Source: Naegleria gruberi
Taxonomy: Eukaryota
Assembly: GCA_000004985.1 (NCBI GenBank)
Contig: GG738848.1
Strand: one strand, 5' to 3'
DNA length: 64,000 bases
A model generated the notes under the pieces. The model saw only the letters and a list, made by a program, of their open reading frames with translations, searched no databases and had not been told where the DNA came from. Positions 46,831 to 58,467 of the stretch are shown piece after piece (the stretch's first letter is position 1; every line of letters begins with the position of its first letter). The position numbers and the translations under genes are program-made.

Positions 46831-47644
46831 ATGAAGTCCATCGTCACCACCATCAACAGACTCAACAAGAACAACAAGTCATCATCAATTATTTGTACAA
46901 TTCAAAGCAGATGTTACTCTGAGGACGTTGCTAAATCTCAATTCAAGATTTCACCTTCTCAAGCTGCTAGAAATAAATTTATTGAATATAGAGCAAACAA
47001 TTTGGAAAATTATATGGGAATGGTTAATTTTGTTCCTGATGTTGCTCACATTGGTCAAAGACGTTGCCATAATCAAGTCATTCCACGTGATGCTCCTGCT
47101 CAACTTTCTAAATTAGGTTTGGATTTGTACACTAGAGTTACTCCAATCTTAACCTTCATTAAAAATGTTGCTTGGGATAACATGTGTTCTCATGATGTTG
47201 AATTCGTAAGTATTGATAACGGAAGTGATTGGAATTTTATTGTTCACATCAAAAATAATAATCTTACAGGTTGAAGAATGGGAATGTTGTCAAAAACAAT
47301 ACGAAAGAGACTCTTCTAAATTGACTGCTGAAGATAAGCAAATTCTTGATCCTATCATGAATAGAGCTACATTGTTGTGGAATGTTGCATTGCACGCTGA
47401 AAATATTTCTTCAATTTTAGCTACTTTGGGTATGAAGTACAGAAACACTTATTCTTATCCAGATGAAGATAAGGATATGATTTTAGATATTACTGCTGAA
47501 TATGTCGAATTGCGTGACAAGCATTGGGAAGATCGTGAAATCAGAGACAAGTTGGCCAATTCTATTTTCCAACGTTTGACTTTGTTGAAGCAAAAGATTG
47601 TTTTGCCTGAACTTACTATCAAATTCCCAAAGCTCTTTGTTTAA
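46831..47644 (+). CDS. Hypothetical protein, possibly a nuclear-encoded mitochondrial protein. Two exons (46831..47205, 47270..47644).
   Basis: ORF 46831..47274 ends at a GTAAGT donor after ..CSHDVEF. The acceptor TCTTACAG at 47269 joins in frame to VEEWECCQKQYE.. of ORF 47213..47644. The N-terminus is basic and hydroxylated (MKSIVTTINRLNKNNKSSSIICTIQSRCYS). No family was assigned. Confidence 0.4.
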
Positions 47645-47995
47645 ATTTCTTCTGACATTTTAAGGGTATTAATAATGTGTTTAAAGAGATTGTATTAATA
47701 AATTATTTTGAAAATTAATGAAAATTGTAATCATTGTTTCAGAATGGAAGAGTATTGTTGAATCCTCAGCATTCTAAATAAGGTGGAGCAAGTTCTCTTC
47801 CTTTTTCAAAAACAAAATAAACCTTAAATAAAAAGAATAAATAGTTTACTGATGCTGTATTATTGTTTACAAATATTTGATTGAATAATTTGATAATAAT
47901 CAATATCAAATTATTCACAGTTATTAATTAAATATACATTTTGGCGGCACTTGGGATGTGGAAAGTTTAAGTTTTTAGGAAAGATTTTTGAAGAA

Positions 47996-48583
47996 TTATT
48001 CATATTCCAAAATTGGTTCTCCTATAGCAGTAATCTTATCAATACTTGGAGGGAAATCGAATACTTTGGCCAATACAAGTTTGAAAAGCTTTTTGATGTT
48101 AATACCAGCAGCAGCGCTACAATAGATGAGAGGACACTTCATCTTTTCAGCATATTTTCTGGCTTGTGCTGTTATATCTTCTTGATCTTCCTTTGGGAGA
48201 TCAACAAACTTATCATACTTTGTACCAATCAAAAAAGGCAGAGCTCGTTTGTTATATTTTCGTGAGTGAAGGAACCAATCTTTAACGGAACGAAGTGTTT
48301 GTTTCCTTGTGAGATCAAACATAAAGAACAAAGCTAAGGAATCATTACAGACAAGGTCAAGCATGCTCATAAACTCTTTTTGACCTCCTAAATCCCAAAT
48401 CATTAGATTTACTTCCGTATTCTTGATTTGGACCTTCTTTTCCAAAAAGTTAACTCCAAGAGTCATAATATAATCCTCATCAAATTTACCATTAACATAT
48501 TTCACCATCAAACTTGTTTTACCAACTTGTACGTCACCAAGCATACCAACTTTAACCACGAATTGTTTGTTCTTACTAGACAT
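47996..48583 (-). CDS. Spg1/Tem1-like septation/mitotic-exit small GTPase
   Basis: It is 195 aa. The P-loop is GDVQVGKTSLM and the G3 box is WDLGGQKEF. The sequence FVVKVGMLGD..YDKF is characteristic of the Spg1/Tem1 branch, not Rab or Ras. The NKxD box is TKYD and there is no C-terminal CAAX. Confidence 0.8.
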   Translation of the reverse strand: MSSKNKQFVVKVGMLGDVQVGKTSLMVKYVNGKFDEDYIMTLGVNFLEKKVQIKNTEVNLMIWDLGGQKEFMSMLDLVCNDSLALFFMFDLTRKQTLRSVKDWFLHSRKYNKRALPFLIGTKYDKFVDLPKEDQEDITAQARKYAEKMKCPLIYCSAAAGINIKKLFKLVLAKVFDFPPSIDKITAIGEPILEYE

Positions 48584-49022: not shown

Positions 49023-50102
49023 TTAGAGTAACATGAATGAAATCAATGAGAGGAGGGCAACAATTAATTGAAGGGCAGCAACTGAGGCATTGGATTTCTT
49101 ACTGCTTGCTGCAGTAGGAGTTGAGGATTTTCTGACACCAACGGCAACATTACTAGTTGCACCAACATCACCCACATAACTGAGCTTGGTGGCATCTAAC
49201 TTGACTTGATAGAGAGCATTAATAATAGGAGCAAGGTAGGCATGACAGAAATCAGCATTTAAGGTCTTGGTATATGGATCAGCACCCAAAGAAAAAGAGG
49301 TAATGTTGGCATTTGGGAAATTGCTTTTAGCAAGAGTTTCCATTGAAGTACCAGATTGAACACACAAATTGACTGTCTTTTGATTAAGATCACTCAAAGA
49401 TGAAATAGCAGAGCCAAGATTGCCTTTGACAACACCATTACCATCCTTAATATATGGACAAGTAAAATCAATCAAATCAGTTCTTGGAACAGTTTGACCT
49501 GAAGGGAGAGTTACTGTACCTTCAACTGACATACCACTCAAAATAAAATCAAATCTGAGATTACCCATATCAGTAATGAGATTACCAAAAACAGTGGTAT
49601 CATTGGTAAAGTAAGCTTGGAAAGGAACACCTGCATAATTCATACCAATTCTATAAGCAATAGAGGCAGCAATATCTTTAAAATTCAATTAGAACACATT
49701 AATACAGCACTATTTAAACTTACCAGCTTCGAAACCAGTGCATTTACCATAATTTGAACCTACAGCAGTGTAATTAAATCTTTTTGGAACATTCGCAACA
49801 CTGTTAGCACCAAAGAGAATATATTTACGTGCGAGAATACTGGCCATAGTAGAATCAGCTTGAAGGTCGGAAGCAGCTGGCCAAGTAGTATAATTTGTAC
49901 ATTTACTTGTTGGGGCATGGAGAATATTGTCACCAAAGTAAGATTGATGGATAGCATTGAACCCAATACTAGTTGTTGTATCAGCAAGGAAATCATAAAC
50001 AGCCTTGTTCAATGTTTTGGCAGCTGTTGACTGGGCACTGACAAGTGTAGCAGTGGTGGCAACTACACAACACAAAACGACAAGGAAAAATAAATTCTTC
50101 AT
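49023..50102 (-). CDS. Secreted, probably GPI-anchored protein with a bacterial periplasmic solute-binding (SBP_bac_3 / iGluR ligand-binding-like) domain. Two exons (50102..49724, 49674..49023).
   Basis: Exon 1 has a signal peptide (MKNLFFLVVLCCVVATTATLVSAQS). A 49-nt intron (GTAAGT..TTTTAAAG, 49675..49723) joins ..GFEAG|DIAASIAYRIGMNYAGVPF...RFDFILSGMSVEGTV..RTDLIDFTCPYIKDG..LSDLNQKTVNLCVQSGTS. This matches the SBP family 3 lobe pattern (G.E.D.A..IA...G.....fD.i..gms.T..R...vdFt.PY...g..........dL.gk.v.vq.GT). The C-terminus has an S/T-rich stalk and a hydrophobic tail (AALQLIVALLSLISFMLL), consistent with a GPI signal. Confidence 0.6.
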
Positions 50103-50347: not shown

Positions 50348-52516
50348 TTAATAGATCGATTTGGCTTCCTTTCTGTAGGAGGATATTAATTGTTGTGGAT
50401 AGTGAAGAGAAAGCTTTTTGAGAATAACGTCCAATCTTCTTTGTCTTTTTCTTGATGTTTTTGGAACTTGTTGAATTATGAAATGTCTTGGCAAGACAAA
50501 GTATTGGAATTTTTGTAGAATCAAATTGGCGTGGTAAATAATCTTATCGTTGGTACTATCTTGTGTGTAGAGAGGCAAGTGAGATACTTGGCCAATTATT
50601 ACTGGCTCGAATGGATAACTTGCTTTGATTTGATAGGCTTTTTGACCTTGTGAAGAAACACTGACATATCTTGCAGTGTCAATAAATGCATTGTCTGAAT
50701 CAACTGGAGCGTATTCATTACTTTTGAATAGGGACTTTTTCAGAGTGGTAAATTCTTGTGGAATGTCAGTATTTTCATCATCTGATTGACTAATGAAAGA
50801 TGGGACAACAAATACAATCTTTTCCTTTTCTAAATATTGAGAGAGGGAAGGATACGATTCCATTAAATTTTGTGGAGATTTCCATAATCTGGTCTCAATT
50901 TTGGCGGAGATTGGTTCCAACTTGTCGAGTGGCTTGGAGGATTTGTCATGTACGAATAATTTCAAAAAGTCTCTGTTCAAATACTTGGAAATGACGCTAC
51001 TGGCATCTACTAGAGCAATCCATTTGGTTCTTGTCATAAGAATTGCTTCATTTCTTAGCAAATTAATAGGAAGTTTGTGTTCATCGAAAGTTGGAATCAC
51101 AATACACTTGTAATCAAATTTGACTTTCTTAGAGGATACAACAAGTTGAGTTAACTTTTCTGAGGAACAGTCACTTTGTGATTTAGAAGCTATGGAAACT
51201 ACCAAGTTATCACCTTCAGAGAGTCTCTTGATAAAATCGTTAATAAGAGGTATCTGAGAAATAGTGCAGTAGGTAGCAAATGTAAGACCGTTTTCAAGCA
51301 ATTCTGTTGAACGTTTTTCAAAATCGTGAGAAGGTGTCCATTCAATGGAGTAAGGTGAGGGAACAAAATAAATTGGAGGTGATGGGATTTCATCCTTAAC
51401 ATTGTTATAGGATTCCAATATGTTTGAGATGAAAGACTTGGTTATCATTCTTCTTATATCTACAATGGAAAAGCTGCTTTGATAGCTTGACTCTAAAGAT
51501 TTCTTTTCTAATTCATCTCTGACAAGTTCAATAATTTTGGAATTTTTCACCTTGAATTGATTATCTTCAGGAGAGGAAGTAGCAAACACAAACCACAATA
51601 ATTCAGGCACTTCCTTCTCAGTTAAAGGTTCTAATTTGCTGGAAGATACCCACTTGGTTTGTAATTTCCTGTTAATTGTCCTCGAGGATTTAGAAAGAAC
51701 ATTTTCAACATTGGTAAAGTATGGAGTATTCTTTTCAGAGTTCATTACATTGAATGCCAAAAGACCATAGTCAACATGCTCACCAAACAATGATTTTCTA
51801 TCTGATGTTTCTTTCAATAAATAATCTACTCTCTTATTATCTTGATTAACAAATATCGAAAATCCTGGCTCCAAAATCAAAACATATTCTGCCAATCTGC
51901 TTGTCGATTTTAATCCATTAGAAATCAATGCAGGAGCTTGGCATTTCTTGGCTGTAAAGACTCTAAACACGTCATAAAGTTCGGGATTGGAATATTTTGA
52001 CATGTGTAAATCCTTTTTTAAATCTTCACACATTGATATCGTCACTATAATTTGACTTTCTCTTAATTTATCTAATTTATCCAAATATTCCTTCTCAATC
52101 CAATCCATCTGTGAAACTGTTTCAACATATGAAATAATACCCAATTTACTCTTTTTAAAAACATCATCACCTGTTGGAAGATTAGGTATTTCCTCTTTAA
52201 CGTTCTCCCATTCAAATGTTTCCGTTCTACTAAATTGTAATGAAAAAATCAACAATATTATAAGTGGTATAGCAATAATTGCCACTAAAATCCATCGATT
52301 TGGTTTAGATGATGAAGCAGATTGTTTGTATTGTCCTCCTCCATACGAAGAATATTTACTATTGCCATAACTATAGGATGTTGAATGGGAGATTGGATTT
52401 TCATCAATAGGAGAAGCCAACTTTGTTGGTCGATTTCTCATTGTTAATGGTTGGGTGTAGGCACTTCCCGAAGTTGTGGTCAGAGATGAAAATTCTTCAT
52501 CATCACGAAAAGACAT
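50348..52516 (-). CDS. Hypothetical type II membrane protein (722 aa), possibly a Golgi glycosyltransferase-like protein
   Basis: It has a single N-terminal TM (WILVAIIAIPLIILLIFSL) after a short S-rich cytosolic head, then a large lumenal domain. No secure family motif was found. Confidence 0.4.
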   Translation of the reverse strand: MSFRDDEEFSSLTTTSGSAYTQPLTMRNRPTKLASPIDENPISHSTSYSYGNSKYSSYGGGQYKQSASSSKPNRWILVAIIAIPLIILLIFSLQFSRTETFEWENVKEEIPNLPTGDDVFKKSKLGIISYVETVSQMDWIEKEYLDKLDKLRESQIIVTISMCEDLKKDLHMSKYSNPELYDVFRVFTAKKCQAPALISNGLKSTSRLAEYVLILEPGFSIFVNQDNKRVDYLLKETSDRKSLFGEHVDYGLLAFNVMNSEKNTPYFTNVENVLSKSSRTINRKLQTKWVSSSKLEPLTEKEVPELLWFVFATSSPEDNQFKVKNSKIIELVRDELEKKSLESSYQSSFSIVDIRRMITKSFISNILESYNNVKDEIPSPPIYFVPSPYSIEWTPSHDFEKRSTELLENGLTFATYCTISQIPLINDFIKRLSEGDNLVVSIASKSQSDCSSEKLTQLVVSSKKVKFDYKCIVIPTFDEHKLPINLLRNEAILMTRTKWIALVDASSVISKYLNRDFLKLFVHDKSSKPLDKLEPISAKIETRLWKSPQNLMESYPSLSQYLEKEKIVFVVPSFISQSDDENTDIPQEFTTLKKSLFKSNEYAPVDSDNAFIDTARYVSVSSQGQKAYQIKASYPFEPVIIGQVSHLPLYTQDSTNDKIIYHANLILQKFQYFVLPRHFIIQQVPKTSRKRQRRLDVILKKLSLHYPQQLISSYRKEAKSIY

Positions 52517-58368: not shown

Positions 58369-58394
58369 CTAATTTAAGGAGGCAAAAGGTTAAG

Positions 58395-58467
58395 TGGAGA
58401 TGCGGGGTATCGATCCCCGTACCTCTTCCATGCTAAAGAAGCGCTCTACCATGTGAGCTACATCCCC
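58395..58467 (-). tRNA. tRNA-Ala, anticodon AGC
   Basis: The reverse complement GGGGATGTAGCTCACATGGTAGAGCGCTTCTTTAGCATGGAAGAGGTACGGGGATCGATACCCCGCATCTCCA folds as a cloverleaf. The acceptor is GGGGATG/CATCTCC with a G3-U70 wobble, the Ala identity pair. The anticodon loop is TTAGCAT. The T-arm is CGGGG ATCGATA CCCCG. Confidence 0.85.

Follow-up and report, generated by a model that had tools for sequence, protein, structure and literature searches.

Free-standing solute-binding proteins (SBPs) are a hallmark of prokaryotic import by ATP-binding cassette (ABC) transporters, and eukaryotes use the same fold mainly inside glutamate receptors. The ligand-binding domain of the ionotropic glutamate receptors (iGluRs) belongs to the same family 3 (SBP3) superfamily and works on the same clamshell principle. 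Binding modules without a cytoplasmic domain of their own, such as folate receptor α, GFRα and the trypanosome transferrin receptor, are tethered by a glycosylphosphatidylinositol (GPI) anchor, and act by endocytic capture or by handing their ligand over to a transmembrane partner. Here we describe an SBP3 gene of Naegleria gruberi, encoded on the minus strand (50102-49023) of a 64,000 nt stretch of contig GG738848.1 (GenBank assembly GCA_000004985.1), hereafter the window. The gene is known so far as an automatically named database entry (XP_002682113.1, 'amino acid abc transporter [Naegleria gruberi strain NEG-M]'), and the name is misleading. In the predicted product, the SBP fold would stand by itself at the surface of a eukaryotic cell, and its chain order is rearranged. 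In the sampled data, this order serves as a putative genealogical marker that ties the protist family not to bacteria but to the Heimdall group of the Asgard archaea, which are the nearest relatives that eukaryotes are known to have. A search of full-text literature (on Naegleria GPI-anchored or solute-binding proteins, Asgard SBPs, SBP_bac_3 proteins of protists and an Asgard origin of iGluRs) returned nothing on this SBP family or its permutation. The permuted topology of the protein, the GPI-type architecture of its family, its altered binding site and its link to Heimdallarchaeia therefore appear to be undescribed in the searchable literature, in keeping with a first-pass annotation of the sequence, which had called free-standing, surface-tethered versions in protists rarely described.

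The bilobed SBP3 core spans residues 88-309 (49128..49841, minus strand, split by an intron) and was delimited by profile and PDB matches, a structural model and Foldseek. It carries the landmarks GFEADIA, SGMS, DFTCPY, CVQSGTS and GVRK, and the three motifs on which the first-pass annotation had based an SBP_bac_3-type core (DFILSGMSVEGT, RTDLIDFTCPYIKDG and LSDLNQKTVNLCVQSGTS) are all present in the product. The product matched the NCBIfam models TIGR01096 (E 1.3e-10) and GlnH (E 5.8e-8) and the PDB sequence AncCDT-1 (E 2e-10), and scored 25.5 bits (E 1.3e-5) against Pfam SBP_bac_3 (PF00497), the gathering cut-off of which is 26.4; family members P0012, P0045 and P0153 exceeded the SBP_bac_3 threshold. 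An AlphaFold2 model built from the family alignment had a mean predicted local distance difference test (pLDDT) score of 82 and a predicted template modelling score of 0.78. Searching the PDB with this model by Foldseek returned amino-acid SBPs at the top (E 3e-17, probability 1.0), with 1160 matches at E <= 1e-3. The sequence homology to SBP_bac_3 is thus real but divergent, being significant yet weak for this member, and the structural evidence is stronger.

A kinship with the iGluR ligand-binding domain, also raised by the first-pass annotation, stands at the level of the superfamily and goes no further. The match to Lig_chan-Glu_bd (PF10613) did not reach significance (E 0.19), scoring 12.3 bits where the cut-off is 30. 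In the S1S2 arrangement of iGluRs (Lig_chan-Glu_bd/Lig_chan) a pore domain lies between the lobes; the Naegleria protein has none and its topology differs. Given the non-significant score and the lack of an internal transmembrane segment, membership of the iGluR ligand-binding domain was rejected. A match to CcmH was dismissed as spurious, as it fell below the cut-off and lay over residues 10-76, in the signal peptide and the first part of the mature protein.

Canonical SBP3 domains run from lobe 1 through lobe 2 and a return strand to a C-terminal helix pair. This order was not found in the N. gruberi product. Its residues 25-58 (LNKAVYDFL...FNAIHQSYFGD; 49929..50030, minus strand) are homologous to the canonical C-terminal helices, and the model places helices at 26-40 and 48-56 with pLDDT ~90. 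They are joined to the core by a permutation-junction linker (residues 59-87; 49842..49928, minus strand) bearing a conserved Cys68 and a T-W-P motif. We moved residues 25-85 to the C-terminus and rescanned NCBIfam. The score against TIGR01096 rose from 39.1 to 47.2 bits and the end of the match advanced from profile position 179 to 241 of 250; GlnH rose from 30.6 to 38.7 bits, with the profile reached to 245/248, and FliY from 24.2 to 35.9 bits, reached to 263/266. For the archaeal relative P0023, the same operation raised the TIGR01096 score from 141.1 to 155.0 bits and carried the match to 250/250. Only the re-permuted sequence reached the end of the profiles. Conversely, bacterial GlnBP (its sequence checked against 1ggg_A), when permuted likewise, aligned in register with the whole family, its C-terminal helices falling on the N-terminal helices of the family. 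The domain has undergone circular permutation, in which the helix pair that is C-terminal in canonical proteins has become N-terminal, giving the order helix pair, lobe 1, lobe 2 (H-1-2). The segment of ~60 residues that leads from the signal peptide to the first β-strand is the region of these transposed helices and not a novel extension. The stretch from a WFxG motif to the first strand has the same length (~30 aa) and contains a [YWF]-P motif in Asgard and eukaryotic members alike.

A word-indexed search retrieved 11 relatives, from Naegleria lovaniensis, N. fowleri, Willaertia and metagenomic sequences. Exhaustive searching of 1.84 billion representative proteins with a hidden Markov model (HMM) of the family yielded 186 matches at E <= 1e-3, which is very few for a superfamily of such size. 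The first tier of these matches was eukaryotic and included Trimastix marina and Paratrimastix pyriformis. The second (E 1e-30 to 1e-15) was archaeal, the named sequences belonging to 'Candidatus Kariarchaeaceae' and 'Candidatus Heimdallarchaeota'. Remoter matches with N-terminal helices were, where named, eukaryotic (Cavostelium, Phalansterium, Stenamoeba, Carpediemonas and Heterolobosea sp. BB2). The eukaryotic family ranges over Heterolobosea, Preaxostyla, Carpediemonas and Amoebozoa. The archaeal sequences were used to seed a second search, in which their nearest full-length relatives were labelled Hodarchaeales, Heimdallarchaeota or Kariarchaeaceae, some of them on contigs of 0.16-1.13 Mb.

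We then classified 270 proteins and 80 loci of GTDB species representatives by the order of their domain parts. Small HMMs were used for this, one built for the helix pair (H) and one for each half of the domain (1, first; 2, second). The H-1-2 order was found in the eukaryotic family, in Heimdall-group archaea (for example L009, Heimdallarchaeota RS678) and in some sequences from metagenomes or uncultured archaea; all archaea of this order that bore a label were Heimdallarchaeota, Hodarchaeales or Kariarchaeaceae, and the remainder were eukaryotes and metagenome sequences. Marine Group II/III archaea and one Kariarchaeota locus had the order 2-H-1, and Marine Group II archaea also had 1-2-H-1, within proteins of ~1050 aa. 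The canonical order, 1-2-H, was present in every bacterium in the set and in some Heimdall proteins. One Heimdall protein, P0020, had the tandem order 2-H-1-2-H-1. This 629 aa protein of Candidatus Heimdallarchaeota (L006 4677-6566), which has a response-regulator gene just downstream, could plausibly be a stage on the way to circular permutation through duplication and truncation. At the loci of Marine Group II/Thalassarchaeaceae (L020, L022, L024-L025, L027-L034 and others), the 1-2-H-1 SBP3 domain was fused to PBP1/ANF_receptor-type domains (PF01094, PF13458) in proteins of ~1000-1100 aa, which look like large multi-flytrap surface proteins.

An archaeal rather than a bacterial ancestry is the best reading of these data. 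In the exhaustive search, the best named prokaryotic matches to the eukaryotic profile were from Heimdallarchaeia, and these ranked above the bacterial-type SBPs of canonical order. With an HMM of the eukaryotic core from which the helices had been removed, Heimdall H-1-2 proteins again came first (96-72 bits) and the best protein of canonical order (1-2-H) scored ~60. In a neighbour-joining tree of the core (195 columns), all eukaryotic sequences formed one clade adjoining the Heimdall protein P0179, and the columns of core-only comparisons also favoured the Asgard set (identity 31%, similarity 0.47) over the bacterial set (24%, 0.33). The main evidence for the putative archaeal link is the common permutation and its junction, not the tree. 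Similarity is what was observed; the direction, from archaea to eukaryotes, we infer because the archaeal proteins are nearer to canonical SBPs, because they keep the canonical binding residues and because they coexist with other permutation states. Transfer from eukaryotes to Asgard archaea, or contamination of metagenome-assembled genomes, is unlikely. The archaeal genes lie among prokaryote-type genes on contigs of up to 1.13 Mb, and their closeness to canonical SBPs, their retained binding-site Asp (see below) and the coexisting permutation states, the tandem among them, point the same way.

The Heimdallarchaeial H-1-2 proteins (for example P0023, P0179, P0165 and MHA2090257.1) are the closest prokaryotic relatives of the Naegleria protein. 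They share its domain order and [YWF]-P linker, and have an N-terminal signal peptide, a Ser/Thr-rich stalk and a C-terminal hydrophobic anchor. They differ in being nearer to canonical SBPs (TIGR01096 scores of 141-155 bits, against 39-47 for Naegleria), in keeping the Asp, in lacking the cysteines of the Naegleria subfamily, in ending with a transmembrane segment and RRKK-like residues, and in that some lie beside ABC genes. The bacterial SBP_bac_3/TIGR01096 proteins (GlnBP, HisJ/LAOBP, ArtJ, FliY and the ArgBP of T. maritima) have in common with the Naegleria protein the bilobed type II fold (Foldseek E 1e-17 to 1e-12), the carboxylate clamp and the DFxxPY and GT(S/T) motifs. The Naegleria protein is set apart from them by its N-terminal helix pair, a 14 aa insert before the clamp Arg, a Pro in place of Asp, four cysteines, four sequons, a GPI-signal tail, an intron and the lack of an adjoining ABC partner.

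To characterize the binding site, we mapped the family onto GlnBP, using contact residues and roles which we take to be those of the glutamine complex structure 1WDN. The Arg that binds the α-carboxylate (GlnBP R75) corresponds to Arg191 (49482-49484); this position is Arg or Lys in 13/13 members of the subfamily and Arg in every Asgard, other archaeal or bacterial sequence that was examined. The two clamp hydroxyls are also retained. GlnBP T70 corresponds to Ser176 (Thr in all archaeal sequences examined, Thr/Ser in 20/21 bacterial ones), and T118 to Thr236, which is invariant in the subfamily and Thr in all archaeal and bacterial sequences examined. The α-ammonium-binding Asp (D157), in contrast, is replaced by Pro276 (49227-49229) in all 13 subfamily members. 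This residue is Asp in 10/11 Asgard H-1-2 proteins, 9/9 archaeal 2-H-1 proteins and 18/21 bacterial proteins. The subfamily has further features of its own: an invariant C-H-x-Y motif (CHAY in N. gruberi, 49236-49247), invariant polar cleft residues C270, H271, Y273 and N279, an insert of 10-25 residues just before the Arg (14 aa in N. gruberi, residues 177-190, 49485-49526) and four conserved cysteines, in N. gruberi C68, C199, C231 and C270, that are missing from the archaeal proteins. The ectodomain of the N. gruberi protein carries four N-glycosylation sequons. The amino-acid binding proposed in the first-pass annotation is thus uncertain: the α-carboxylate Arg is kept, and the α-ammonium Asp is an invariant Pro. 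We infer that the ligand carries a carboxylate and is recognised otherwise than a standard α-amino acid, and the altered site accordingly predicts a ligand of another kind.

The remaining features of the product are those of a secreted, membrane-tethered protein. Residues 1-23 (MKNLFFLVVLCCVVATTATLVSA; 50034..50102, minus strand) form a signal peptide, judged by inspection, with a basic MKN N-terminal region, a hydrophobic core of ~18 residues and a likely cleavage site at VSA|QS; every full-length family member has an equivalent hydrophobic N-terminus. The core is followed by a Ser/Thr/Ala-rich stalk (residues 310-324, SSTPTAASSKKSNAS; 49083..49127, minus strand), and pLDDT <50 at residues 312-322 indicates that these are disordered in the model. 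The chain ends with a 19 aa hydrophobic tail (residues 325-343, VAALQLIVALLSLISFMLL; 49026..49082, minus strand) of the GPI-signal propeptide type, which runs to the C-terminus (...SFMLL) with zero residues after it. The signal peptide and this tail are the only hydrophobic runs in the protein, and no internal transmembrane segment is present. The signal peptide and Ser/Thr stalk noted in the first-pass annotation can be read directly in the sequence.

All 15 of the closest members have a hydrophobic C-terminal run, which is the last element of the protein in 14 and is followed by two uncharged residues in one; the GPI-type C-terminus suggested earlier is in accord with this pattern. Among the distant eukaryotic members, 9/12 also have the tail at the C-terminus (<=2 residues after the run). 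In the N. gruberi protein, a segment rich in Ser, Ala, Gly and Asn leads up to the run, and candidate ω sites at A315/A316 and S321/N322 can be read in the stalk. The small-residue triplet A315-A316-S317 is followed by the spacer SKKSNAS, and N322-A323-S324 by VAALQ, so that the spacers are 5-7 residues long. Asgard relatives have a C-terminal transmembrane segment followed by RRKK-like residues (RRKK or RKYRS), an ending that was not found in the window protein. These observations indicate the architecture of a GPI-attachment signal, and the protein is probably lipid-anchored. According to the Naegleria pangenome paper, there is 'evidence of GPI-anchored proteins' (PMC9928731), and a passage in another article describes GPI-T as 'conserved among all eukaryotes' (PMC9098846).

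The Asgard C-termini merit a separate remark. In P0023, P0027 and P0179, an (F)LP-x-P motif precedes the hydrophobic helix and RRKK, and P0023 matched the Loki-CTERM model below threshold (13.4 bits against a cut-off of 19.9). An archaeosortase-type sorting signal is kept as a lead on the strength of this sub-threshold match, and not as a finding. If an archaeosortase-like enzyme did process these C-termini, the lipid-anchoring logic would parallel that of GPI attachment.

The genomic neighbourhood and domain partners of the relatives bear on function. In Asgard archaea, an ABC_tran ATPase gene adjoins the genes for P0179 and P0165 (loci L088 and L089), together with a BPD_transp_1 permease gene in one case. 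The idea that the Asgard copies are orphans without an ABC importer was dropped for this reason, and ancestrally the protein most likely served an amino-acid importer as its membrane-tethered binding protein. Beside the eukaryotic copies of N. lovaniensis, Willaertia and a metagenomic contig (L001-L003) no ABC genes are present; no search of the whole N. gruberi genome was made. In Amoebozoa, the ectodomain is wired to kinases. In Cavostelium apophysatum P0153 and the metagenomic P0109 (from a Logan contig), the signal peptide is followed by an SBP3 ectodomain of H-1-2 order, a transmembrane helix and then a PK_Tyr_Ser-Thr domain, which scored 251 bits in P0153 and 188 bits in P0109. Their ectodomains are homologous to the Naegleria domain and fall in the same eukaryotic clade by neighbour joining; they differ from it in having a transmembrane helix and a Tyr/Ser-Thr kinase output in place of the GPI-type tail, and in keeping the α-ammonium Asp. 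As both the Arg and the Asp are kept, P0153 and P0109 are candidate amino-acid-sensing receptor kinases of Amoebozoa. The Phalansterium relative P0045 has a transmembrane segment and then a long cytoplasmic tail without a recognised domain. Across the family, a single binding module would be coupled in three ways, to an ABC importer, to a GPI anchor and to a receptor kinase.

These features lead us to propose the following model for the N. gruberi protein. The product would enter the secretory pathway, where the C-terminal propeptide would be exchanged for a GPI anchor, and the binding domain would be held at the external surface of the plasma membrane. The lobes would close on a small solute bearing a carboxylate, held by a clamp of Arg191, Ser176 and Thr236; the change of Asp to Pro276, the C-H-x-Y motif and the insert by the clamp suggest that recognition has shifted from the standard α-amino-acid mode. 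The protein would then most likely be either a sensor or co-receptor at the cell surface, which shows its liganded state to a partner in the membrane, or a capture receptor that is internalised in the manner of the GPI-anchored folate or transferrin receptors. Those receptors are not homologous and have other folds, and they serve here as a functional analogy only. In evolutionary terms, an archaeal uptake SBP would have been taken into eukaryotes, its transmembrane anchor giving way to a GPI-type signal in Naegleria and, in some Amoebozoa, to a transmembrane segment with a kinase. SBP-dependent importers are, to our knowledge, not a eukaryotic feature. For this reason, and because no ABC genes were seen at the eukaryotic copies and the ectodomain is kinase-wired in Amoebozoa, a role in surface sensing or capture is favoured over import. 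Taken as a whole, the interpretation of the protein as an archaeal uptake SBP re-used as a permuted, GPI-displayed surface sensor, co-receptor or capture receptor seems to us reasonably probable.

It should be noted that several observations weigh against this interpretation. The N. gruberi protein falls 0.9 bit under the Pfam SBP_bac_3 gathering score. The loss of the Asp could mean that ligand binding has been lost altogether, and GPI attachment is a prediction from sequence rules and conservation. Several other Asgard copies are without ABC genes nearby, and many family members lie on metagenome contigs without a source name, which makes the taxonomic distribution incomplete. Bootstrap values in the neighbour-joining tree were low (55 for the monophyly of eukaryotes, 38 for eukaryotes with the permuted archaeal proteins), and the tree was set aside as main evidence, though its topology agrees. 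Finally, the core-only profile-profile comparison (hhalign) gave a higher total score to the bacterial set (195) than to the Asgard H-1-2 set (182); we rejected this comparison as a discriminator of ancestry, since its total scores fail to separate the two sets.

That last score is one of the observations that would fit a relic of horizontal transfer from bacteria, an origin which the first-pass annotation had offered. On this account, an ordinary periplasmic amino-acid-binding protein would have later gained an intron and a GPI signal, and would still bind α-amino acids in the canonical way. The top matches among solved structures and NCBIfam models are indeed bacterial or reconstructed amino-acid SBPs, and the carboxylate-binding Arg and the Ser/Thr positions are retained. 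However, the topology is not bacterial, with its helix pair at the N-terminus, and in the sampled set the H-1-2 order with an alignable junction linker was seen in Heimdallarchaeia and eukaryotes only. Heimdall proteins outrank all SBPs of canonical order in the exhaustive search and are the top named prokaryotic matches. The invariant Pro at the α-ammonium position speaks against canonical binding, and the family is distributed over three eukaryotic supergroups and is old in Heterolobosea, where an intron is common to Naegleria and Willaertia. We therefore regard a bacterial relic as quite improbable, and the suggestion gave way to the archaeal link. How the archaeal gene came to be in eukaryotes is a further matter. 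Vertical inheritance from the archaeal ancestor of eukaryotes, with GPI anchoring in Heterolobosea and Preaxostyla, kinase coupling in Amoebozoa and loss in most other lineages, is a tentative proposal that we hold to be rather improbable. If the link does reflect descent and not later transfer, an environment-sensing surface component would join the short list of archaeal-host contributions; such a rare archaeal-host sensing module would parallel, independently, the way in which SBP3 domains were recruited into glutamate receptors.

Two other alternatives concern the anchor and the cleft. The hydrophobic tail might stay in place as a single-pass membrane anchor, or the protein might be shed as a soluble secreted binding protein. 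Asgard relatives do have a C-terminal transmembrane anchor, and the eukaryotic relatives P0045, P0109 and P0153 have true transmembrane segments with cytoplasmic domains. Against this, positively charged stop-transfer residues follow the run in none of the 15 close members, 14 of which end at the run itself and one of which has just two uncharged residues beyond it, and the small-residue triplets and 5-7 residue spacers before the tail of the window protein are a textbook GPI-signal layout; we consider a retained anchor or a shed protein unlikely. The cleft, for its part, could belong to an enzyme built on the SBP scaffold in the manner of cyclohexadienyl dehydratase, with Cys-His-x-Tyr and Asn279 as catalytic residues. 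In both sequence and fold, the top matches include cyclohexadienyl dehydratases as well as reconstructed ancestors of these enzymes, and the subfamily combines its own invariant polar cleft residues (C270, H271, Y273 and N279) with the loss of the Asp that holds the ligand amine. The top matches, however, are ancestral binding proteins, AncCDT-1 being one that binds amino acids, and reconstructed ancestors are consensus-like, which probably explains their high rank. Cys270 is one of the four conserved cysteines that the Asgard relatives lack, and a disulfide is the likelier role for it in a secreted protein; the close ectodomain homologues fused to kinases point to sensing. A catalytic function is thus very improbable.

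The gene itself is a genuine spliced eukaryotic gene of N. gruberi. The coordinates 49023-50102 given by the first-pass annotation were exact. The gene has two exons on the minus strand, the ATG lying at 50102 and the TAA stop at 49025-49023. Exon 1 (49724..50102) holds codons 1-126 and base 1 of codon 127, with the 3' end ...TTCGAAGCTG, and exon 2 (49023..49675) holds the remainder of codon 127 through codon 343, plus the TAA stop. They are separated by a spliceosomal phase 1 intron (49676..49723, GTAAGT...TAAAG), which is 48 nt long and not 49 nt as first reported. An in-frame stop lies inside the intron, where the open reading frame (ORF) read through unspliced terminates in GKFK*, and splicing out is therefore required. 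The spliced product of 343 aa is letter-for-letter identical, by exact-sequence look-up, to XP_002682113.1 (EFC49369.1, D2V1T9), and thus the gene model and its intron are already annotated. The SBP homology is continuous over the splice junction, TGFEAD|IAASIA aligning with TGFDIDLAKALA of PDB AncCDT-1. In the N. lovaniensis orthologue P0002 (53% identity), exactly the same site is interrupted by an intron of the same phase, and the intron-less relative P0007 (L003, a 36 kb metagenomic contig rich in eukaryotic genes) is colinear across the junction. Conservation of the intron site and phase, together with that of the gene neighbourhood in N. lovaniensis, upholds the earlier view that the gene is genuinely eukaryotic.

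The orthologues of other Heterolobosea contain more introns. Three were found in N. lovaniensis (110, 42 and 66 nt; L001 6395-6504, 6846-6887 and 7007-7072) and two in Willaertia (L002 6223-6359 and 7028-7107). A phase 2 intron at YVA|P is common to N. lovaniensis and Willaertia magna and absent in N. gruberi. This distribution indicates a putative intron loss in the N. gruberi lineage, and since an intron is common to Naegleria and Willaertia, the gene is old in Heterolobosea. The N. fowleri orthologue P0003 (FDP41_009315) is annotated at 273 aa only. It is without two internal blocks that are present in all other members, one from the Y-x-A-Y region to the insert and the other GTSME...G, and exons have probably been skipped in its gene model. 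A 99% identical copy of the N. gruberi gene on a 2827 bp ENA metagenome contig (P0001, P0275) has been called as two prokaryote-style ORFs, of 130 aa for exon 1 and 206 aa for exon 2, an example of eukaryotic genes split by metagenome gene calling.

The gene is single-copy in the window, where tblastn with the product returned the gene itself only. Its neighbour at 47996-48583 (minus strand, 195 aa) is XP_002682112.1, a Ras-like GTPase of the Ras family. This gene and the one following it are kept beside the SBP gene in N. lovaniensis, where the GTPase gene is inverted (L001 7526-8116). The following gene, at ~46945-47647 of the window, matches L001 10339-11059, and in N. lovaniensis an additional gene of 547 aa lies between it and the GTPase gene. 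Directly upstream of the SBP gene, an intron-less ORF of 722 aa (50348-52516, minus strand) has no counterpart on the matching side of the N. lovaniensis locus and marks a synteny breakpoint. The window also contains two tRNA genes on the minus strand, tRNA-Arg(TCT) and tRNA-Ala(AGC), at 709-782 and 58394-58467.

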